A DNA stretch of 15,622 nt from a bacterium (GCA_965233585.1 CBDDTI010000592.1:1-15622), one strand, 5' to 3'. Shown: positions 414-15,450, numbered from the stretch's first letter. Numbers and translations are program-made. The notes: generated by a model from the letters alone, not told the origin.

Positions 414-1109
414 TTAAACAGTAACGTAGGCTTTCATTAATCCTTCATAAGGAAAGATGTTACTTCGAATTCTGACTTTATCGTCTTGCTGTTGATGAAA
501 ATCTAGAAGAAGATATCCGTGACTTCGACCGTTAACTGCTTCTCTATACGCTTTATTTAAGATTCCAACACGACCGGGAAAAATTTGTTTTGCCAAATGT
601 GTGACGGCGCTTCTGTCTCGCGGATTGTTAAAAAGGATCATGTATTGCGTATTTATGCTTAATGTCCGTAAATCGCCTTTTTTGTAAAATAAATTTTGAC
701 AAAGAAAAATGGTGAAACAATTGTAATGATGGGTCAAAACCGTAAAAAAATGTTTTAATATTTGCCCAACATCGTCTAAATAATCGTCAAAAACAATCAA
801 TTTGGGCATTTTTCTCGGATATAATTCTAAAATATCTTTCAACTCTTCAATTGAATTTGGAATATTTTTGAATTTACGAAAAGACGGAAATTGTGTGTCA
901 GAACCTCTGCCCTCATTCATGTCGTCTTCCATGTACTGATATGCTTTTTGCGGTTCCTTGTAAAACAACAACATTGTTTCAGGCGGAGTTGCAAAATATT
1001 CGTGCCGACGAAGCACTAAATGTTTTAGCCACGTTGTTTTTCCGCTTGATGTTGGACCGACAACCAACATGTTGGACGGAATATTAAACCTCAAATCAAA
1101 ACCTTTCAT
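414..1109 (-). CDS. A32/FtsK-HerA-like DNA packaging ATPase (231 aa)
   Basis: Walker A GPTSSGKT, Walker B LIVFDD, plus THHYN...LCQNLF...RTLSINTQYMILFNNPRD and HGYLLLD motifs typical of Polinton ATPases. Confidence 0.93.
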   Translation of the reverse strand: MKGFDLRFNIPSNMLVVGPTSSGKTTWLKHLVLRRHEYFATPPETMLLFYKEPQKAYQYMEDDMNEGRGSDTQFPSFRKFKNIPNSIEELKDILELYPRKMPKLIVFDDYLDDVGQILKHFFTVLTHHYNCFTIFLCQNLFYKKGDLRTLSINTQYMILFNNPRDRSAVTHLAKQIFPGRVGILNKAYREAVNGRSHGYLLLDFHQQQDDKVRIRSNIFPYEGLMKAYVTV

Positions 1110-1175: not shown

Positions 1176-4100
1176 TTATTTACAAATTTGACATTTAGAC
1201 ATTTTGTTGTTAACAATAAGACAATTTCCTAGCGATAAAGTGTGACATCCGCAATTTAAAACATATCTTTTGGAATCCATTGCCGACAACGCAATTATTC
1301 TTTGAAAACACGTCCGGATTTTGTGATTCTTTGATCTTAAATTTTTAAAAGATTTGTAAATTACAACAGTTTGCTTTAAGCACTTTTTGTAATCTGCATA
1401 AGTTAATTGCTTTTTTATACTAGATTTTTTTAAACCTTTGCATACTTTTTTCTCATCAGTTTTGTTTTTGTCCAAAAAATCAGCTATTTTCATAGAATAA
1501 CATTTTGGACGTAAGCCTATAAAATCAGTAATAGCCGCTCTACCTTTTAATTCGTCTTTGAAATAAAAAAGTTGATTGGCTTTACTGTCGTCAAAAAGTG
1601 GATGTTGTTTAGGGTACTTTGAAAAATCAAACATGTGTTTCAATCTCTCCATTTCCCTTTCCAAATTGTTGCATTTAACTTTTAAAAGAAAAGAATCCGT
1701 GTCCGAAAAACACAAAGATACATTGTCTTTGCCGAAATGTTTTTGAATGGTGTCATAGTATGATCTGTACATAAACAACTTGGACAACTCTAGAATGGAA
1801 AATCCGACGGCTAAAGGCTTTCTAAGTTCTATCATTGCCGGCTTCTTGTTGACAGCCACCAAATTCTCATTAATGATTTGAAAATTGTTGATGTGTTGAC
1901 CAAGACTGGCTTTTCTCAGACTTTTTTCATCTCCACAAAGGACCACTTCGATGTAATTTCGAACATTTTCTGAAAAATATAAAATTAAATAAATATTTTA
2001 TAAAGAATACAACATTTTTTATAAAAATTCATTATAAAGTGTGTAGGAGTTTGGAGATTTATTTTTTAAAAACTTCCTAAAACCATGTGGCAATTTTCAA
2101 AACAAACTTTCACAGGAAGAAGAGGAGGAGGAAGAAGAAAGGGAAAAATGATGATGATGGAGATGAGGAGGGGGTACAGGAGGTTAAGGGAGGAGGATGG
2201 AGAGCCGCTTTTGGCGGTGGAGGAGGTGGAGGAGGAGAAGAAGAAGAACCGGAGACCGGGCCTGATCCGGCGGATCCGGTCGGCCGTGGCCGACATTTTT
2301 GATGCTCCGCCGTCCGCTGCCGCCTCCGCCACCGCCAGCGCCGCTGCCGTTGCACTCTCTGTTAGCGTTGCTGTGCTCGCCGCCAACGGTGCTGGCGGCG
2401 GCGGAGGCGGCAGCGGTCGCGCTGTCCGAGGCCTTCAAAACGAAAATTTTATTGCGCCCGACGTCCCCACCGGCATTCTTGTTGACCTCCCCACCAACAA
2501 CATCTGAGGTCCAACGTCCCCACCGAGGTGCCCACCGAGGTCCCCACCGAGTCCCCCATCGAGGTGCTCATCGAGGCCCCCACCGAGTCCCCCATCGAGA
2601 TGCTCATCGAGGCCCCCACCGAGTCCCCCATCGAGATGCTCATCGAGGCCCCCATCGAAGTCCCCACCGCTGAAATTTCCTCCAATGTCCCCACCGATGT
2701 GCTCATTGAGGTCCCCGTCCCCATCGAGGTGCCCACCGAGACCCCCACCGAGTTCCCCACCGAGGCGTTTGTCGAATTCCCCATCGAAATCCCCACTGAC
2801 GACCCCATCGAGGCTCCCATCCCCTTTAGACTCCCCGCCGACGACAGATCTTTTGCCGTTAGACGTCGGGCGACGGAGATTGTCCGCCTGGCCAGAATCC
2901 GGGCAGCGGCAAACCGGATGGCCGATTTCGACGGCGAGGTCATCACTGTGGAGGCCGAGGTCCACGCGCCTCCCGATGACATTGAAGATGCGGATGAGCG
3001 TGTGGTGTGTACTGCCAACACATTTTGCACTAAATATTGGCAGTACCACCACACGCTTGTGCAAATATAAAAATACAAAAAAGATCCTAAATCTGGGTAT
3101 TTACTTACCGATAAACTTTCCAAAAGTAGAGTTGGCAAAAAGCTTAAAAAGCCGAAGTTCAAAATCGTTGCGAGCGTTTGATCGTAGCATCGTGACCTTT
3201 TCAATAAACTCCTTCAAAAAAGCTTTTTGCCGAAACTTTACGGCTCTTCTTATCCTCAACAGCTTCATGCCTTTTTTCAAGTAGTATTGTAGATTTTCCA
3301 GATGCACCACGTACTTTTTTCGATCATAAAAAGTGCTCAACAGTTTCTTGCTTCGGTATCTTTTGTTCTTATAATCTCGAGGGTTGAGATGTTTTAGTAA
3401 ACGGCGATTATAAGGAGACAGATGTTTGTAAGAAACCGTGTCTGTATACGGAGCCAGCGGAAATTGATCATGTGTCTGTAAATATTTTACCGTTTATCAA
3501 AATGCAAAAAACGTGTTAAAAAGATCAGATTTACCGGGTGAAGATGAGAAGGATAATGCAAATCAACTTCGAATGCGTACCCGGTCTCGTCTTGAGAAGG
3601 AATCTTGATAATATCTTTGGCAGTCCATTTTTCAAGATCTTTTTTTGCAACCCACTCGAAATCAGAAACTGGCAATTTTAAAGTTTCCATGCTCCCGTAC
3701 AAGTTGTTTGCTAAAAAGTCACCGATTTTAAATAAATAGATTAATCAAACGATGCAGTATAAAATTACCGTCAATGTAAAGTAAATGATCGCCGCTTTTT
3801 CTCGGATTGCTGTTTCCTTTTGCATAACGCTGAGAGATAAAGCTTTGTCCGCCTCTGATACCCTTTGTAAAAAACTGCTCCATTTCAGGATCGGAATAGA
3901 TATCCAGAGATCCTGGAGGTTTGGAAGATTCACCCGCGAGGTTATCTTTTGTTGTTGTAGCTCGTTCAGAGTTTTGATAAAACATAAGCATAACATCAAA
4001 ACTTAGTCCAGGAATTCCTAAAATTATACGAAATAAATTTTATATTCAAACTTTATATGTCAAGCAACAGAAAAAGAAATTCACCTAAGTAATAGATTGG

Positions 4101-5897
4101 ATCCAATTGAAAGTGTTCCATAACCATTTTCCTGTATTGAAGAAATGCTTCACATAGCAGGATGACATCCAAAGAACAATAAAGCATCATGTAATCCGCC
4201 ACATTCTTGCACTTGAACAGTTTGAAGACTTCTTGCGCATGAGAATAATCCGTTTCCGAGATGTGTTCTTCATTCAATTCGGAATAAAAAGCATCTTTGG
4301 TTGGGAGGTTTCGACTTTTTTTCATTTCTTGTAATGATTGAAAATGCTCGTAACAAAAAATGCCTTTTCTTTTTAAAAGTTTAAAAGCTTTTGATTTTTG
4401 ACGGATAGGAATTTTTTGAAATCTTTTCATCTGTTGTAAAATAGGGAAAGAAAAGTTTGAAGTTTGATTCAAATCTTGGACAAGAGCGTCTAAGCTGGCA
4501 GATATGTGCTCTAATGAATCTTGGATTTTAAATTTGCCCAATGTAAGAGTGCGAAACTTTTCACTGTTTCTAGCCAAGACTTCCGGCATTTTCTTAAATC
4601 GGCGAATGTTTAACTCTTCTATGATTAAATGCAAATCGTATCTGAAACATTCAATTTGTTAAAAAATTAATTAAAAAATAAAGTTAATAAAAAATTTTTA
4701 CCCTTGAGCGTTGTGGAAAAAAATTGGCGTGTGATAGGGTCCGGATCTTGTCAAATTACACAGCGAATGAGCCGCACCCATTATTTTTCCTGTGACATGA
4801 TCGTGATCCAAAACTTTTCTATACTTTTTAGGATGGGTAGCAAATCGAAGACCGCATATATGACAAACGGTTGCTTTTCGAAACATTTGCCATTCCTCAT
4901 GGGTGGCTTGAGTTTTGAGAACATCTCTGAATTTTTGTTTTCTTTCTTCAACCACTTTTTCGTAGAGAGGTATCCGATCCAAAAAACGTTTGGCCGCATC
5001 CTCTCCTAAATATTCTTCTTGAAAGAATACTTCATTTTCGGAGTCCACAAAAATCAGGCTGTAGCCTACCGGTCTATGCACATTTATATCGTCACTTGTG
5101 GGAAAAGCACACAAGCATTCCAATTTAGAACAAAGTCGACATTTAGATCGTTCCTTGTTTCTTTGAAGTACACTTTCAAAATCACAAAATCCCACAACAG
5201 GTGCTTTAAACTTATGTTTGTGGTTAGAAAAACTTATAGCGGCATTTTTACCGGGATAAATGGTGCGTTGCTTATCGTAGCAAATTTGCTCATGCTTTTC
5301 TTTCTTGAATTTTGATCGGAAACGCAGCAGACATTTTTCACAGTGGATGTACTTCTGTTGACCCGCTTTGTTAATCGACAACAGTCCGGCCCGATTATTC
5401 AAAAAACCTTGGAGTTTTGTAATTTTAAAGAAATGATGCTGTTGATTTAAATCTTTGATTTTTTTAGGAAACTTGGAAGGAAAACTCGATTTTTTGGGGC
5501 GGGAATTACTCGAAGTTTTATCGGAAGAGATTTTAGGATCGTGTTTTATCATTAACAAATGGAGAGTATTTTCTCTTATATCGTTGTTTTTGTTAGTAAT
5601 AAACCCTAAATTTGAAACGTGACCTTCACTCTCATAAAGTACGGAAATTGAAATTGGTAAATGACGATTTCTACACAAAAATTTTTTTATGTCACAAAAT
5701 TGAAGAGGAAACGTAAAACCTTTTATGTTAAATTTTTTAAGATATTTTATTGGCATTTGACGAAAATCTGTAATGGAAGCAGTTTCTGGAAAAAGATGTC
5801 TAATGTACAGATAAAGAAAGTTGAATTTATCATATCGAGTATTCCATTCCAAGCAGTTAGATCTTTTTATATCTCGTGTAATTTCTATAAAATCCAT
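1176..5897 (-). CDS. polB: Protein-primed DNA polymerase B, 6 exons: 5897-4702, 4641-4085, 4017-3769, 3710-3535, 3475-3109, 1969-1176 (3339 nt, 1112 aa)
   Basis: ExoI CDFES and motif C FSDTDSF lie within exons. Splice junctions rebuild FHNAQGYDLHLII (ExoII), DPIYYLGIPGLSFD, YIDANNLYG (motif A), YPSHLHPTHDQFPLAP and KLFANSTFGKFIENVR (motif B). LRPKCYS and KVCKG are present. All introns are GT-AG and in phase. The start codon is the least certain part. Confidence 0.93.
2085..3070 (+). CDS. Nested antisense gene (ORFs 2085-2507 and 2528-3070, probably one frameshifted gene): acidic/basic N-terminal part, Ala-rich hydrophobic stretch, E-x-P-T/I repeats
   Basis: TATAAAAA at 2020-2027 and AAAACC-ATG at 2085. 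Visibly GC-rich compared with its flanks. The tail of the first ORF (DVPTGILVDLPT) resembles the repeats of the second (NVPTDVLIEVP). Confidence 0.5.
2513..2820 (+). repeat. 12-nt periodic coding repeat, including three near-identical 36-nt units (about 2542-2649)
   Basis: CCCCACCGAGTCCCCCATCGAGRTGCTCATCGAGGC x3, built from GAGnnnCCCAYC-like subunits. Confidence 0.9.
3476..3534 (-). other. pPolB intron 4 (59 nt, phase 0)
   Basis: GTAAAT...TTTACAG; joins HLHP to THDQFPLAP. Confidence 0.88.
3711..3768 (-). other. pPolB intron 3 (58 nt, phase 1)
   Basis: GTAATT...TTTTTAG; restores YID-A-NNLYG. Confidence 0.9.
4018..4084 (-). other. pPolB intron 2 (67 nt, phase 1)
   Basis: GTGAAT...ATTTTAG; restores YYL-G-IPGLSFD. 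Confidence 0.88.
4642..4701 (-). other. pPolB intron 1 (60 nt, phase 2)
   Basis: GTAAAA...GTTTCAG; restores HNAQ-G-YDLH. Confidence 0.9.
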
Positions 5898-5946
5898 TTC
5901 CAAAGCTTACTTGAATTTTTATATACAACAAAATAAGTCCTTAAAA

Positions 5947-6708
5947 TCAAATATTGGTAATTTGGATGTCGCTAAAAGACAGAGATTCGAATCTCCATCC
6001 GGAACCTCTCATCAACAAATCCTCTTCTCGAGTTATTAAATTGTTTAATAATTTTTGAACTTTACCTTTTAACGAGCGAGAAGAATCAAAAGACGTGAAT
6101 TGAATATAGCCGGTTCTTAAAGCAAAGACATCTCGATCGCTAGGCATTAATTCATGTGACGACTGATCAAAACTTTTTTCAGTTGAATCATCAATGTTGC
6201 TAACAACCGTTTGAGGCTGTGATGAAGTATTATCAACAACAGCTTCCGTCTCAGTGTCTTTGTCTTTTGTAGCTGAATTCAAATCAGGAATCTGATACGC
6301 CGCTGATAAAATTAAAGCAACTTTTACTGTAAAGGTTTTACTTAATTCATGACGAATAACATCAACAATTTCTTGTCTATTTGTTCTATTAACAACAAAG
6401 GCGTGAAGCGTTTCTGTAGAAAATATATGTTTCCGAAAAATTTTGATTTTACCGTTTAAAGCAGATTTAAAAAGAGAGTAATTTAAGTCTTCTAAATGAG
6501 AGGAATCGATGTGAGAGACCAAATCATTTCTTGATTTAAAGGAACTTAATTCATTCTTACAAAACGGACACTGAAGCGATTGATTTAATGGAGTCCGATT
6601 TCGGAATTTTGACGATGTTTCACGATGACGAAACAATTCATGTTTGTCTCGGGAAGATTTTCTAGTAAACGATTTTTGGCATTCGCGGCAGACGTAGGAT
6701 TTTGGCAT
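5947..6708 (-). CDS. Stand-alone terminal-protein-like ORF with two C2H2 zinc fingers and GSGW motif (253 aa)
   Basis: YVCRECQKSFTRKSSRDKHELFRH and LQCPFC...LVSHIDSSH fingers. SALNGKIKIFR, KVALILSAAY and LMRGSGWRFESL match the region normally found at the N-terminus of Polinton pPolB. Confidence 0.8.
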   Translation of the reverse strand: MPKSYVCRECQKSFTRKSSRDKHELFRHRETSSKFRNRTPLNQSLQCPFCKNELSSFKSRNDLVSHIDSSHLEDLNYSLFKSALNGKIKIFRKHIFSTETLHAFVVNRTNRQEIVDVIRHELSKTFTVKVALILSAAYQIPDLNSATKDKDTETEAVVDNTSSQPQTVVSNIDDSTEKSFDQSSHELMPSDRDVFALRTGYIQFTSFDSSRSLKGKVQKLLNNLITREEDLLMRGSGWRFESLSFSDIQITNI

Positions 6709-6808
6709 TTCTGTTAAAATTCTGAAACAAAATTTATTGACGCGTGAAATTTGGAAATAATATATACAAACACATTAAAACTATATAGCTCAGACTAATT
6801 AATACAAA

Positions 6809-7636
6809 TCATTCTTGTCTAAAATGACGCAACAATCTTTGATATTGAGCACGTAAGCGTTCGCGTTCACGCTCAAGCGTTTGAATGCGTTGACGCAATA
6901 CGTACTCAGCATAACGATTGAACAAATCATAAGGTGAGCCTCCTTCTACATCAATTAAATCAAGAATGAAAGAGGCTAAACGACCGTCACTCGATCTTTC
7001 TAAATTTGAGGGTGCGGGGAAATAATTTTCCTCTTCTATTTCTTCTTCTGCTGATCGAGTTGGACGTTGATAAGGAGAAGAATATCTTCCAGCCCTACCA
7101 ACACCGCGTCTGACCTCTCGTCCAATCGAGGCTGAAGTCGTTTGATTGAAGGGGCGAGAAATATTTTGACCCCGACCAACGCCACGACCAGCGACCGAAG
7201 TACTCGAGGTGTTGCGCTCAGCAAAAATTCTTTGAGACATGGGGTTCGATGTTGAATCATCGACAGCGTTGTTTGATGATGGCGATGTTAATTCATCGGC
7301 GGAGTTATTGGTCGATGTTAAATCATCGGCTAAATTGTTATTGATCCGAACCATAATTCCAAATCCTTCGGGGTTTACAACTATCGGTTCAGATACTCGA
7401 CCCCGTTGATTAAACGAGGAAGATGTTGTCTGGCCCCGACCAACACCACGAGCGGTTAGAGAAGTTGGGCCATCATTTGACCTCAAATCTCCTCGACCTC
7501 GTCCAATCGGCACAACCGGTGGAGATGGCGGTGATGTTAAATCATCAGCGTTTCTTAGATGAAATCTTATTCTTAACCCGGCAGGGCCAAGAAAAACTTG
7601 GCGAGGGTTGTTTGAGTCATTTGGTGAATTAGACAT
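6809..7636 (-). CDS. Hypothetical disordered RG-rich protein with a C-terminal coiled coil (275 aa)
   Basis: Long ORF with AAAATG start downstream of a TATA/Inr promoter. RGVGR x3 and AD(D/E)LTS x3; tail LRQRIQTLERERERLRAQYQRLL; AATAAA at 6738-6733. Confidence 0.75.
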   Translation of the reverse strand: MSNSPNDSNNPRQVFLGPAGLRIRFHLRNADDLTSPPSPPVVPIGRGRGDLRSNDGPTSLTARGVGRGQTTSSSFNQRGRVSEPIVVNPEGFGIMVRINNNLADDLTSTNNSADELTSPSSNNAVDDSTSNPMSQRIFAERNTSSTSVAGRGVGRGQNISRPFNQTTSASIGREVRRGVGRAGRYSSPYQRPTRSAEEEIEEENYFPAPSNLERSSDGRLASFILDLIDVEGGSPYDLFNRYAEYVLRQRIQTLERERERLRAQYQRLLRHFRQE

Positions 7637-7699
7637 TTTAATTACCTTTGGCAGCGAATGGCAGAAGATCTTCTTTCAACGAATGTTCAAACTTATAAT

Positions 7700-7732
7700 G
7701 AATGAATTTGGAAATATGACCGCGTTTTTATA
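7700..7732 (-). promoter_or_regulatory. Pol II core promoter (TATA plus initiator) for the leftward replication unit
   Basis: TATAAAAA at 7732-7725 and TCATTC (TCAKTY-type Inr) at 7705-7700, with the Inr A 29 nt from the first T of the TATA box. Confidence 0.6.
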
Positions 7733-7958
7733 CAATTTTTGGTGGGAAATAGTTTGGCACATTTACGAGCCAATTGCATGAGAAAAAATTAATGACAAAT
7801 TAAGCACAAAAAATTAAAGATATCCACGGCAAATTACAAATCTTGAGCATGAGAAACGTTAAGTACTTGGAAAAATTAATGGCGATTTGATTGAGTTTTG
7901 ACAAATATAATTTGTTACAAATACGGACTAGTTGAATGAGAAAAAATTGATGGAAAAT

Positions 7959-7989
7959 ACGCGCACACACGCACACACACACGCACACA
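7959..7989. repeat. Imperfect (CA)n microsatellite
   Basis: acgcgcacacacgcacacacacacgcacaca. Confidence 0.8.
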
Positions 7990-8395
7990 GTGCACCCACT
8001 ATCTATAATTTTCTTAAACCATTGTTTAATTCACAATTTAACACGTTCAAAAACACAAATTATCCATAATTTCCTTAGACCATTGTCTGTTAACGACTTG
8101 ACGCGTTATAATTTAGGATGAGCCAAAAACATTAACAAGAATTGACCTCAAACGCGTTCAGCATCGTTAAAATTTACAACCTTTAGCGCCATAGCTCATT
8201 TATGCTGTGTAACCAATCAAAATTGATGAAACTTATCGGCTACTTGCCCGCGCATGTGGAATCAAGAGCCCCTTAGAACATTGTCATACTGACACTCCCT
8301 TAAACTCAAGAAGGTTTAAAAAGAACCTACATTTGATGACAAACGCCAGTACAGATTTATTGACAGAATAAATCACCCGCATTTAAAGCAATAAG

Positions 8396-12013: not shown

Positions 12014-12506
12014 ACGGAAATTTAAACATTGTCGTTCTCAGAACCTTTCTTCGCGCCCCCGAACTGATTCAAGACGTGGAAAGTGGAAAAAATTGAGATT
12101 GCAAACGGCTTGCAACAGGCTCAATCGAGCCTGTAATCGGCTTGCAACAGGCCGATTGCAGACGAAAACAAGCCGATTACAGGCTCGATTGAGCCTGTTG
12201 CAAGCCGATTGCAGACGAAAACAAGCCGATTGCAGGCTCGATTGAGCCTGTTGCAAGCCGATTGCAGACGAAAACAAGCCGATTACAGGCTCGATTGAGG
12301 TTGTTGCAAGCCGATTGCAGACGAAAACAAGCCGATTGCAGGCTCGATTGAGGTTGTTGCAAGCCGATTGCAGACGAAAACAAGCCGGTTGCAGACGATT
12401 ACAAGCCGATTTCAGGTTGAAACAACCTTAATGTAGATGCCATCAAGGTGATTTTAGAGCGTAACAAGCTCGAATGAGAGTGATGTAGGGACATTACTCC
12501 ACAACA
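12014..12506. repeat. Palindrome-rich repeat, copy A, including four tandem 53-nt units (12169-12380)
   Basis: Unit CAAGCCGATTRCAGGCTCGATTGAG(CC/GT)TGTTGCAAGCCGATTGCAGACGAAAA, with an inverted partial unit at about 12110-12144. Flanks are shared with copy B. Confidence 0.9.
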
Positions 12507-12520
12507 CAGAACGTTTATAG

Positions 12521-13408
12521 GATGAGGAGTTATTACGGAAAAAGCCAATTCTAAATCTAAATTTCCGTAATTTTCTGGATGCACGTGGAACGAATTACAT
12601 TGATCCGGCGTTAAATCGGCCGCTAGAAAAATTCTTCCGTTTAAATATTCTTCATACGTTAAGCCAATGGATTGATTGCCGTGCGAAATGCTTGTACTGT
12701 CAAAACGCGAAAATTGCCCCGATGGATATTTCTTTTCCCGACAGCATATGCAGCATTCCAGAATCGATCGCTAATGACCCGATCATTATAAAACTGATTA
12801 AAAACCAAAACCAATTGGAAGAGCACAAATTGAAAATACCCAAAAATTATTTTTGTGACTCTAACGATTTAACAATTGCAATGAACCGACTGTTGTCGGA
12901 ACAACTTAGGGAAGTACTATATTTTGACAACATCAACGGATTTTTAAGAATTACGGCTAAAACTGATCAAAGTTTTTTAATAGGATTTCCAAAAAGCCTC
13001 TGTCCGATTTTAGGAATGTACGATTATCCGGAGGGAGAAGCATTAAGAACTTTTAAAGCAGATAATCACCATATGTTTGTCATGAAGAAAGACTCGCTTT
13101 ATGAAGCACCACAACCGATAGACATTTACAAACTATATCCCGGTGTTATGATTTGTTATGCCAATTTTGTTCAGCGTTCTATTGTCGGAGACAAATTTTA
13201 TCCAATACTTAGAATTATTCCCACAATCGGTCAATCAAAACAAAATGACTACTGCTCTATCCATTTCAAGCACTTAGAATTTATAAAATGCAACGTCGAT
13301 TATTTAGACAACATGAAGATCGAATTGAGGAGATTGGACGGAGACTTGATTGAATTCGACGACAAAAAAAGAGTAGTTTTAAATATTGTAATTAAAAATC
13401 CAATTTAA
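12521..13408 (+). CDS. Minor capsid protein (penton, single jelly-roll), 5' end missing or on an unlocated exon
   Basis: MICYANFVQRSIVGDKFYPILRIIP...IHFKHLEFIKC...MKIELRRLDGDLIEF...VVLNIVIK matches the Polinton penton C-terminal signature. The frame is open back to 12521, just after TTTATAG. AATAAA at about 13419. Confidence 0.82.
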   Translation, partial: DEELLRKKPILNLNFRNFLDARGTNYIDPALNRPLEKFFRLNILHTLSQWIDCRAKCLYCQNAKIAPMDISFPDSICSIPESIANDPIIIKLIKNQNQLEEHKLKIPKNYFCDSNDLTIAMNRLLSEQLREVLYFDNINGFLRITAKTDQSFLIGFPKSLCPILGMYDYPEGEALRTFKADNHHMFVMKKDSLYEAPQPIDIYKLYPGVMICYANFVQRSIVGDKFYPILRIIPTIGQSKQNDYCSIHFKHLEFIKCNVDYLDNMKIELRRLDGDLIEFDDKKRVVLNIVIKNPI

Positions 13409-13755
13409 ATTGTATTTTAATAAAAGGATTCATTTAAAGACAACGAATTATTGGTAAAATTTACTAAAGAAATATCTGAAGTACGATTTACAAGGCTAAT
13501 CGCTTTCAGCATGTTATAAGTTAACCCGGAAGCTAACCAAAGAATAACGTAAATACAAATAACAAGAGAAACGGCCATTCCAAAATAACTACAGAAAGTA
13601 TTACATGGGTCGGGATAAAGACTGTAGGGGCTGGGAGATTACAAATCCTGGTGGAATTGTTCCAGGTCCGATTCTTCAAAACGGGATATTGGCTCTAAAG
13701 GTTGATGCGTTTTTGGCTTCATGTCCGGCCAAACATTGTTGTTCATACTTCTTCT

Positions 13756-14148
13756 TCAAAAACTGTATGTTGTTCCACACAAAAATCTTTGAACAACAAT
13801 TTCATGCAAAAAAAACGCATAAAAATGAAACACTTTTAGTTCATTTTGGATTTCACGATGCCACCACAACCTGGTGTCTGAGTCGCCAGAGATATTAGGT
13901 TTTCCCAGAAGTTTGTCTTTGAGGCAGGTCCTGTAGTTTACCAATTCACTATCCAATGATTCCAAAGACTCGTTGATTCTGCGAAGATGAGCAGAAATGC
14001 GACGCATACAATGCGCAACGTGGGTTGGATTTGAAGTATTGTAAATACCGGCTTCGTCAGGACCAGAATCCCAGTCAGAATTATGCGGCGATCCTGTTGT
14101 TGGTTGGTTGTTGACTTGTCCACCCATGCTGCACGACTGAAACAACAT
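13756..14148 (-). CDS. Hypothetical protein (130 aa) with a short coiled-coil-like segment
   Basis: ATG ORF containing MRRISAHLRRINESLESLDSELVNY; 3' end uncertain; no recognised homology. Confidence 0.45.
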   Translation of the reverse strand: MLFQSCSMGGQVNNQPTTGSPHNSDWDSGPDEAGIYNTSNPTHVAHCMRRISAHLRRINESLESLDSELVNYRTCLKDKLLGKPNISGDSDTRLWWHREIQNELKVFHFYAFFLHEIVVQRFLCGTTYSF

Positions 14149-14207
14149 TTAGCATAGACACAACTAATAAATAAAAGCATGCTCGGCAAATATTTGGGCG
14201 AGTCAGT

Positions 14208-14679
14208 GCTCACAATTTAATGGCATTTGAGCAAATCCAAATAAAATGAAAAAATTTTGGATTTAAACAAGAGCCAAAAAAGTATGAGGAACGAATGTTA
14301 CCATTTTCAAATCGAAGGTAGTTGCTCACAATTTTATAACTTTTATGTGGATTCAAATATTGAAATTGAAAAAATTTGGATCATGCACAAAAGCTAAAAA
14401 AGCATGAGACATTGATGTTGGTGATGATATACGATGAAAATTGACTACAATTTAAGGACGTTTGTATGGAATAATTGCTCACAATTTAATTACCCTTGTG
14501 GCGAGTGTCATATATTAAAACAATATGAAACTTGTACAAGAATAAAAAAAGCATGAGATGATAAGCAGTGTTCGGATTTTTTAAAGTTGAGTAAAAGCTC
14601 ACAATTTAAAGACAAATGTGACAGGTCAAATCAAATTGAAAAAATTTAGACCTTGCAACATTTGCCAAAAAAGTGTGAG
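14208..14679. repeat. Four degenerate ~120-150-nt units
   Basis: GCTCACAATTT at 14208, 14324, 14477 and 14597, each followed 68-72 nt later by AAAAAAGYRTGAG (14276, 14396, 14545, 14667). Confidence 0.75.
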
Positions 14680-14763
14680 AAATAGAGATGTCTTGATATT
14701 GGAAACGATTGAAAACGACTGTGAGTTGTAAAACACCATAGTTTGAATTTTTACGATTGGGAG

Positions 14764-15004
14764 AATTTGCGCAAGTTGGACCGAATGTTACGTTCAGAGG
14801 GAAATTTGCGCAAGTTGGACCGAATGAAAAGTTTTACATTTGAGCGGGTTTGGAACTAAAAGACGGAATTTTAAACAATTTCCGTTCCCAGAACCTTTCT
14901 TTGGGAATTTGCGCAAATTGGACCGAATGAAAAGTTTTACATTTGAGCGGGTTTGGAGCGAAAAGACGGAATTTTTAAACAATTCCCATTCCCAGAACCT
15001 TTCT
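14764..15004. repeat. ~103-nt tandem duplication plus one extra partial copy
   Basis: AATTTGCGCAARTTGGACCGAATG at 14764, 14803 and 14906. The last two continue nearly identically to CAGAACCTTTCTT. Confidence 0.88.
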
Positions 15005-15450
15005 TCGCGCCCCGGAACTGAAAACGAACTTGCAATGGCAAAAAATAGATGTTGCAACAAGCCTGCAACTGGCTTTTTTTCGTCTGCAACCGGCTTGCTT
15101 TCGTCTGCAATCGGCTTGCAACAGGCCGATTACAGGCTCAATCGAGCCTGTTGCAAGCCGATTGCAGACGAAAACAAGCCGGTTGCAGGCCGATTACAGG
15201 CTCGATCGAGCCTGTTGCAAGCCGATTGCAGACGAAGACAAGTCGGTTACAGGCTCGATCGAGCCTGCAACAGGCTCAATGTAGATGCCATCAAGATGGT
15301 TTGAGAGCTCTTCACGATGGTTTTCATGCGTAAACGGGGGGGTTGAAAGCCCGTTTCAGCCTGTTTTAAGGTGTTTTGAGAACGTTTTGAGAAGAAATGT
15401 GCCTACATCGGGCTCGAAAGAGCCTGATGTAGGTACATATCTCTACAACA
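14966..15450. repeat. Palindrome-rich repeat, copy B (direct orientation relative to copy A)
   Basis: Shares CAGAACCTTTCTTCGCGCCCC, the CAAGCCGATTGCAGACGAA units, AATGTAGATGCCATCAAG and TGATGTAGG.ACAT with 12014-12506. Confidence 0.88.

Follow-up and report, generated by a model that had tools for sequence, protein, structure and literature searches.

How the tightly packed genes of Maverick/Polinton elements and adintoviruses are expressed in the nucleus is essentially undescribed, and the replication module of one such element raises this question. The module lies on the minus strand of a complete 15.6-kb contig (GCA_965233585.1, CBDDTI010000592.1:1-15622; 15,622 nt, the whole of which was analyzed and is called the window hereafter), which represents most of a Maverick/Polinton-type element of ~22.9 kb. 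The genes on this strand are ordered as RG-repeat protein, zinc-finger protein, protein-primed family B DNA polymerase (PolB; the gene is referred to as Pol), and ATPase. An initial annotation had proposed that the first three form a unit resembling the adenovirus E2 unit: a short non-coding leader from one promoter would remain unspliced in the RNA for the RG-repeat protein and would be spliced to the second open reading frame (ORF), taken to encode a terminal protein (TP), and perhaps to Pol. After comparing the window with other copies of the element, we regard splicing of the leader to the second ORF as the best reading of the locus, one that we hold at somewhat less than an even chance.

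RNAs of this element must be spliced, and long introns handled, because Pol requires the removal of five GT-AG introns (60, 67, 58, 59, and 1139 nt). Its joined exons comprise 3339 nt and encode 1112 aa with no internal stop. The spliced product aligns end to end with single-ORF polymerases in blastp (P0001, E 2e-130; P0002, E 3e-135, spanning query residues 223–1103). P0002 carries PF03175 (DNA_pol_B_2) with E 2.4e-23, and the single Pol exons of the window reach only E 0.12 against this family. Position-weight matrices for scoring splice sites were built from 23 polymerase introns of six element lineages in the same assembly.

The features that the initial annotation had placed at the 5' end of the unit, namely a TATA box at 7732, an initiator at 7703, a leader devoid of ATG, a 5' splice site (donor) at 7645, and a 275-aa ORF, were all found at these positions (Table 1). 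In the 23.6-kb element, this is the only TATA box with an initiator at +24 to +40 plus a downstream GGTAA. The leader donor scored 10.6 bits, within the range of true donors (6.1–11.7 bits, median 9.5, leave-one-out) and at the 99.5th percentile of 2886 GT sites. From the TATA box to the first acceptor, it is the sole GT of at least 6 bits in the window and in representatives of lineages A and B; lineage B' differs in having two more donors, of 6.7 and 7.9 bits, within the first ORF.

The second ORF was found in 25 copies within the assembly, which fall into lineages A (11 copies, 95.7–100% identical), B (12 copies, ~77%), and B' (2 copies, ~76%), all with the same order of three ORFs. As the synonymous divergence (dS) between A and B is 0.92, unconstrained sites are near saturation. 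Nevertheless, the spacing of 84–87 nt between TATAAAA and AAGGTAA is intact in 24 of the 25 copies, and each of these 24 has a leader of 58–61 nt with no ATG. In the exception, C112, the donor has lost 2 nt and the first ORF is frameshifted. A TTCC..TCATTC block around the putative start is common to lineages A, B, and B'. Of the 25 copies, 23 have an intact first ORF, with a ratio of nonsynonymous to synonymous divergence (dN/dS) of 0.20–0.45, and 24 have an intact second ORF (dN/dS 0.12–0.18); these ratios indicate that both ORFs are under purifying selection.

Both acceptors described before the ATG of the second ORF, ending at 6722 and 6711, are present. The first scored 11.6 bits, compared with a median of 8.0 for true acceptors, and stands at the 99.5th percentile of 3568 AG sites. 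It belongs to a block, AATAAA..TTTCAGAAT, situated 30 nt ahead of the second ORF and retained in 25 of 25 copies with its TTTCAG included; its general form, AATAAATTTTG(T/A)TTT(T)CAGAAT, starts 30–31 nt before the second ORF in every copy. The AATAAA in this block is a candidate poly(A) signal. Between A and B, these 30 nt are 84% identical, compared with 56–62% for the rest of the spacer, 50–55% for the first ORF, and 77% for the second ORF. The second acceptor scored 8.0 bits, and its TAACAG occurs only in lineage A; at the equivalent of 6711, B and B' have GTAAG (4.4 bits). Judged from these comparisons, the conservation of promoter, donor, and first acceptor across diverged copies exceeds chance. 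Donors within the spacer between the RG-repeat and zinc-finger ORFs were also considered as partners of the acceptors and rejected, as GTATTA, GTCTGA, GTTTTA, GTGTTT, and GTATAT, the only ones there, all scored below 4 bits. Seven of 11 lineage-A copies have a 15-nt insertion with GTAATT 13 nt past the stop of the RG-repeat ORF (6785–6800 region), which the window copy lacks; as a donor, this GTAATT has an A at position −1 and is poor by the logic of the matrix.

More diverged copies were informative about the origin of the donor. A tblastn search added 14 copies of lineages C1, C2, and D, whose second ORF is 24–31% and whose Pol N-terminus is 39–48% identical to those of the window; all 14 have an upstream ORF, a separate zinc-finger ORF of 210–220 aa, and a separate Pol ORF. 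The leader of C2 and D ends in AAG GTAAG/A, followed by a short intron (59 nt in C2; estimated by eye at ~70–90 nt in C93 and D) whose acceptor immediately precedes the ATG of the first ORF. Because the leader donor opens a short intron in these lineages, that of the window is ancestral and homologous to a genuine intron donor. C1 has a longer intron in its 5' untranslated region (UTR) and a weaker leader donor (4.8 bits). What is peculiar to A, B, and B' is that the leader donor is retained without an acceptor before the first ORF. Ahead of the zinc-finger ORF, acceptors are present in these three lineages, in C1 (13.9 bits), and in D (3.1 bits, with a clear pyrimidine tract and TAG). In lineage D, at least two similar leader exons with good donors, and strong acceptors before each, were observed ~420 nt upstream of the first ORF (C98), so that the leader of this lineage is duplicated and multipartite. 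Searches of genome, metagenome, and viral contig collections returned no more distant DNA relatives.

Table 1. Features of the replication module and its surroundings. Positions refer to the window unless another contig is named; − and + denote the strand.
Feature	Position	Strand	Remark
TATA box TATAAAA	7726..7732	−	Kept in 25/25 copies
Initiator-like TCATTC, putative +1 A at 7703	7697..7705	−	A lies 29 nt past the first T of the TATA box
Non-coding leader exon, 58 nt, no ATG	7646..7703	−	Read from sequence
Leader 5' splice site AAG GTAATT (cut 7646/7645; longer: CAAAG GTAATT)	7640..7648	−	9 nt upstream of ATG 7636
First ORF, RG-repeat protein, 275 aa	6809..7636	−	ATG 7636; predicted C-terminal helical or coiled region
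AATAAA poly(A)-signal hexamer	6733..6738	−	11 nt ahead of the first acceptor AG; absent from the initial annotation
First 3' splice-site-like element TTTTGTTTCAG (longer: ...TGTTTCAG, ...TTGTTTCAG)	6722..6732	−	Last G 6722
Second acceptor-like element AATTTTAACAG (longer: ...TTTTAACAG; ...TTAACAG)	6711..6721	−	Last G 6711
Second ORF, 253 aa, two C2H2 fingers and conserved alpha/beta domain	5947..6708	−	ATG at 6708
Spacer from second-ORF stop to Pol ATG, 49 nt	5898..5946	−	No conserved splice site
Protein-primed family B DNA polymerase gene	1176..5897	−	ATG 5897; six exons, five GT-AG introns
Pol exons	5897-4702, 4641-4085, 4017-3769, 3710-3535, 3475-3109, 1969-1176	−	Joined length 3339 nt
P-loop ATPase, packaging-ATPase-like	414..1109	−	Downstream of Pol; same position in all lineages
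Left terminal inverted repeat	12080..12504	−	53-nt subterminal tandem repeats; matches C670 terminus
TBP-domain and TFIIB-ribbon genes	L010 3239-3856 and 3877-4671 (= G000 C670 23239-23856, 23877-24671)	+	Outside the window

Leader splicing to Pol, which had been suggested as a further possibility, found no such support. The distance from the stop of the second ORF to the Pol ATG is ~50 nt in A and B, 2 nt in C1, 18–20 nt in C2, and 79 nt in D. The AAG sites 15–20 nt before the Pol ATG are as weak as previously described (−1.8 and −2.2 bits, like random AG). GTAAG, TATATAAAA, and TTTTAAG at 5940 (8.6 bits) are confined to lineage A, and the spacer of lineage B has no AG at all. What therefore stands of the proposed E2-like unit is its conserved promoter, leader, donor, and first acceptor, but not the expectation that every replication gene is preceded by an acceptor.

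Ways of joining the second ORF directly to Pol were likewise rejected. A 26-nt intron from GTAAG to TATAG would be too short for the host, and its GTAAG is missing in B; the donor AG GTTCCG would delete a conserved segment; and TTA GTGATA occurs only in B' and some A copies. Frameshifting from the second ORF into Pol is impossible in lineage A, where a TAA 12 nt before the ATG closes the Pol frame, and is conceivable only in C1. In that lineage, the zinc-finger ORF ends in ...TTTTTTAA, followed by AA and then by the Pol ATG in the −1 frame (C164, ~32085–32095, and a further eight C1 copies). A −1 frameshift on the run of T at the stop would yield a fusion protein colinear with the single-ORF relatives; termination–reinitiation is an alternative.

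The protein encoded by the second ORF differs from what its designation as TP implied. A profile search against the sequences of the Protein Data Bank (PDB) showed that residues ~1–60 are two classical C2H2 fingers (profile positions 3–61); the fingers were the only matches, and neither terminal-protein homology nor a priming residue was found. The rest of the protein is colinear with residues 37–164 of the fused polymerase P0001 (1170 aa; probability 36%, E 3.9e-4), and this stretch stops ~10 residues before residue 175, where the alignment of the window Pol begins. Stand-alone homologues of ~210–240 aa were found on unnamed metagenomic contigs (42 matches, 25 of them at E ≤1e-10), and they end a few to ~25 residues past the same conserved strand. 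In an AlphaFold model with a mean pLDDT of 79, no significant structural match was found with Foldseek (best E 0.019). The best VIA-align matches (Z 8.2, root-mean-square deviation 2.6–2.8 Å over 94–99 residues) were little-finger domains of Y-family polymerases and one unrelated chain; Y-family polymerases occupy eight of the 12 best rows, at a Z that is borderline and within the range that the tool calls common. The region corresponding to the polymerase N-terminus is a separate zinc-finger ORF in 39 of 39 copies examined. These alignments indicate that the second ORF is a split-off N-terminal region of the polymerase, and its product probably binds DNA; nothing among these results shows a terminal-protein function.

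The RG-repeat protein gave no comparable lead. None of its 54 homologues is named or has a Pfam family. Its own sequence yielded a single sub-threshold Pfam match (DUF5320, 18.9 bits against a cut-off of 27), no match in PHROGs, and no lead in Atlas (best score 0.77).

Taken as a transcript model, leader splicing to the second ORF would proceed as follows. RNA polymerase II of the host would start ~30 nt past the TATA box, at a putative start near 7703, and produce a non-coding leader of 58 nt with a 5' splice site at its end. The RNA would then meet one of two fates. If left unspliced, it would be cleaved and polyadenylated at the AATAAA at 6738 and serve as mRNA of the RG-repeat protein. If spliced, the leader would be joined to 6722 or, less often, to 6711; the 924-nt intron ending at 6722 would take out the whole RG-repeat ORF and the AATAAA, and the zinc-finger ORF would become the first ORF on an RNA continuing through Pol. 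Pol, which has no acceptor for the leader, would be the second cistron of the spliced RNA or would have a start of its own. We consider it unlikely, although worth stating, that the replication module of a Maverick/Polinton is in this way run like adenovirus E2, by a switch between polyadenylation and leader splicing under one TATA/initiator promoter. The Logan contigs covering 3100–8000 (four DNA-like runs) are unspliced through the Pol introns and are thus uninformative on splicing; of their five low-depth joints, none is of the GT..AG type or falls at 7646>6721 or 7646>6710.

Several points weigh against leader splicing. The use of the donor and of the AATAAA, the transcription start, and the mode of Pol translation are all deduced from sequence. 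False sites of the same strength occur within the conserved second ORF (two donors, at 6452 and 6065, and an acceptor at 6303), and taken by itself the window has no excess of the motifs over shuffled sequence (AAGGTAA, 2 observed and 2.67 expected; YTTTCAGR, 3 observed and 4.66 expected). As equally strong sites arise by chance, the case rests on conservation and on the logic of pairing, not on motif strength. Lineage C2 has AACGAG before the zinc-finger ORF (−4.3 bits) and hence no usable acceptor, so a shared leader is not universal in the family. In B and B', an AATAAA lies 13 nt before the Pol ATG, which fits badly with a single RNA for the zinc-finger protein and Pol. Finally, the block that holds the first acceptor would also fit a poly(A) site, as it comprises a UGUA-containing TGTATAT, AATAAA, a CA cleavage site, and a U-rich tract, or it could be a compact promoter.

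The explanation that fares best among the alternatives, although we consider it rather unlikely, is that the genes are expressed separately, without leader splicing. The conserved block would then be the poly(A) site of the RG-repeat mRNA, a compact promoter of the zinc-finger gene, or both, and the zinc-finger ORF and Pol would be expressed from their own starts or from a polycistronic RNA. TGTATAT (UGUA) lies 30–35 nt upstream of AATAAA, with a T-rich tract downstream, an arrangement that C1, C2, and D share; in C2, AATAAA and the T tract are retained but a YAG acceptor is lacking. A/T-rich TATA-like motifs precede the start codons of the zinc-finger ORF, Pol, the ATPase, and the following ORF by 29–44 nt, and the element encodes TBP-domain and TFIIB-ribbon proteins, described below. 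Moreover, junctions of 0–9 nt or ATGA overlaps elsewhere in the element need a non-splicing mechanism and imply another expression route, which could possibly serve the zinc-finger ORF and Pol as well. Against separate expression, no TATA box of the element other than that of the RG-repeat promoter has a correctly spaced initiator, and the conservation of the block spans ~20 nt, more than a hexamer needs. The leader donor must also be accounted for. A promoter-proximal 5' splice site can persist for U1 binding alone, which here would act on transcription or RNA stability, or the donor might be a slowly decaying relic of a 5'-UTR intron; yet a relic should have decayed at a dS of 0.92, and 24 of 25 copies preserve the donor at a constant distance of 84–87 nt from the TATA box.

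An improbable alternative is trans-splicing, in which one precursor would be made, the RG-repeat mRNA would be cleaved at AATAAA, and the acceptor at 6722 would receive a spliced leader (SL) of the host. A poly(A) signal followed by an acceptor is the typical layout of closely spaced operon genes in trans-splicing animals, e.g., nematodes, and TTTCAG-type acceptors together with introns of 58–67 nt are typical of several trans-splicing animal groups. The window resembles such SL operons in having a strong TTTCAG acceptor 11 nt after an upstream AATAAA, just before the next ATG and without a nearby donor of its own, and in the short 58–67-nt introns of Pol; in C1, the zinc-finger acceptor is strong (13.9 bits) and the leader donor weak (4.8 bits). 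It differs from them in the conserved, full-strength cis donor at the 5' end of the unit, whose conservation trans-splicing leaves unexplained, and in that no SL RNA gene was found. The nematode SL1 model (RF00198) had no match in the 12-Mb assembly, a weak negative because its controls were silent as well, and the eukaryote-type 5S rDNA repeat, a site of SL genes in some groups, holds no known SL family. In addition, tighter junctions elsewhere in the element have no acceptor. That the motifs are chance matches in A/T-rich non-coding DNA with no role is very improbable: the single-window counts and the strong false donors and acceptors in the zinc-finger ORF would allow it, but not the position-specific conservation in 24 and 25 of 25 copies across three sublineages at a dS of 0.92, nor the homologous leader donor that opens a canonical intron in sister lineages.

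The assembly from which the window derives (747 contigs, 12.0 Mb) is filed as prokaryote with 92% completeness. It nevertheless contains at least 39 Maverick copies of six lineages, intron-bearing genes, and eukaryote-type tandem 5S rDNA arrays (period 918 nt in C192 and 932 nt in C420), so that much of the bin consists of eukaryotic repeat DNA; the DNA of the window, too, is eukaryote-like despite the prokaryotic label. Given the protein-primed PolB, an rve integrase, and long inverted termini ~22.9 kb apart, the element in the window is an integrated Maverick/Polinton-type element of a eukaryote. Terminal inverted repeats (TIRs) of ~490 nt lie 22.9 kb apart in the complete copies C30 (1003–1495 and 23884–23393) and C77 (2488–2993 and 25348–24856), whose arms are 96–98% identical to the reference terminus. 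A longer contig, C670, contains the full element as a 99%-identical copy flanked on both sides by unique sequence, showing that the element is multi-copy and integrated. The replication module lies ~4.8 kb from the left terminus. Past this terminus, at 12500–15450, the window holds a piece of a second, B-like element, so that two elements are adjacent or nested: a 228-aa ORF (12722–13408) shares 77–78% DNA identity with the 3' part of the 579-aa gene in the full copy, and additional fragments of terminal repeat lie at 15053–15448.

The integrase gene lies outside the window, whose contig ends before it; in the 99%-identical copy (L010 5083–6171), it matches PF00665 with 36.8 bits (cut-off 32.6) and also Chromo with 23 bits, under the family cut-off of 25.1. 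The ATPase shows weak Pfam matches to Pox_A32 (18.3 bits) and FtsK_SpoIIIE (15.9 bits), both below cut-off. With a protein-primed PolB, an rve integrase, and a putative A32-like ATPase, this is a virus-like element related to the ancestors of adenoviruses. It also encodes a TBP-domain protein (PF00352, E 1.8e-18, 66.6 bits) and, adjoining it, a TFIIB zinc-ribbon protein (28.8 bits, cut-off 29); this gene pair is duplicated in the C670 copy. Candidate ORFs for a double jelly-roll major capsid protein (L010 1964–3532, minus strand) and an adenain-like protease (L010 1478–1963, minus strand) matched no Pfam or PHROGs family, the latter being presumed a protease from its His/Cys motif.

Neighboring ORFs of the element often lie 0–9 nt apart (e.g., a TAA followed at once by ATG) or overlap in ATGA, which is unusual for eukaryotic nuclear genes. 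Such junctions were observed at C670 20611–20615, 24671–24681, 25082–25083, and 26171–26178, and in C164, C593, and C98 (between a ~117-aa ORF and the next). As an acceptor cannot fit into such junctions, the downstream ORFs must be expressed by a non-splicing route, e.g., reinitiation or internal starts, and the same route may apply to Pol. Two further observations concern Pol itself. Residues 332–383 in its first exon (4749–4904, minus strand) match Recombination endonuclease VII (Endonuclease_7, His-Me finger) with 25 bits against a cut-off of 23.6, and weaker matches lie at the same place in P0001 and P0002. The fifth intron (1970–3108, minus strand; especially 2000–3060) holds an insert of 53–64% GC with long ORFs on both strands and a repeat of 12-nt period at 2479–2843; the insert is present in ~10–11 copies, compared with ~26–42 for the flanking exons, and resembles an insertion or an expanded repeat.

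Among known systems, the protein-primed polymerases of fungal and plant linear plasmids carry an N-terminal priming (terminal-protein) domain. The present element is similar in that the ORF preceding Pol is the counterpart of the N-terminal region fused to the polymerase in P0001, a distant relative, and differs in that this region is a separate ORF with two C2H2 fingers and an alpha/beta domain nearest, at a borderline Z of 8.2, to the Y-family little finger. With Mavericks/Polintons and adintoviruses, it shares a length of ~22.9 kb, TIRs of ~490 nt, PolB, an rve integrase with a chromodomain (Chromo below cut-off), and a candidate A32/FtsK-like ATPase with weak Pfam matches; it departs from them in the split-off N-terminal ORF of PolB, the TBP and TFIIB-ribbon genes, and the conserved layout of promoter, leader, and donor. 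Within the Maverick and adintovirus literature that our search covered, which did not extend to the founding Maverick/Polinton papers, neither leader splicing nor TBP/TFIIB genes were found. Even without confirmation of the transcript model, this is an unusual Maverick lineage, with a conserved orphan 5' splice site, a split polymerase, and TBP- and TFIIB-like proteins; these factors may tune the promoters of the element.

In adenoviruses, the E2 unit encodes the DNA-binding protein (E2A) and the precursor terminal protein (pTP) and polymerase (E2B); it has one promoter and a short leader, and its first gene, with a poly(A) signal of its own, is followed by the protein-primed replication genes. 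The present unit possibly works like E2, inside a Maverick/Polinton-type element. Both have a single promoter, a short non-coding leader, a poly(A) signal after the first gene (a candidate one in the present unit), and replication genes downstream. Under the leader-splicing model, which protein is made would depend on whether the RNA is polyadenylated after the first gene or the leader is spliced beyond that gene. Both encode a protein-primed family B polymerase, although their proteins are otherwise non-homologous: the RG-repeat protein has no similarity to the adenoviral DNA-binding protein, and the zinc-finger ORF is not detectably related to pTP. In contrast to E2, splicing in the present unit is predicted from motifs and their conservation, Pol has no acceptor of its own, and the Pol gene contains five introns. 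The family provides a concrete transcript model, with the predicted junctions 7646>6721 and 7646>6710 and six diverged lineages as natural variants. If this model is true, the alternative processing in early units of adenoviruses would be held in common with Polinton-like ancestors or derived from them, and the tie between adenoviruses and Polinton-like ancestry would extend beyond capsid and replication genes to the strategy of expression.

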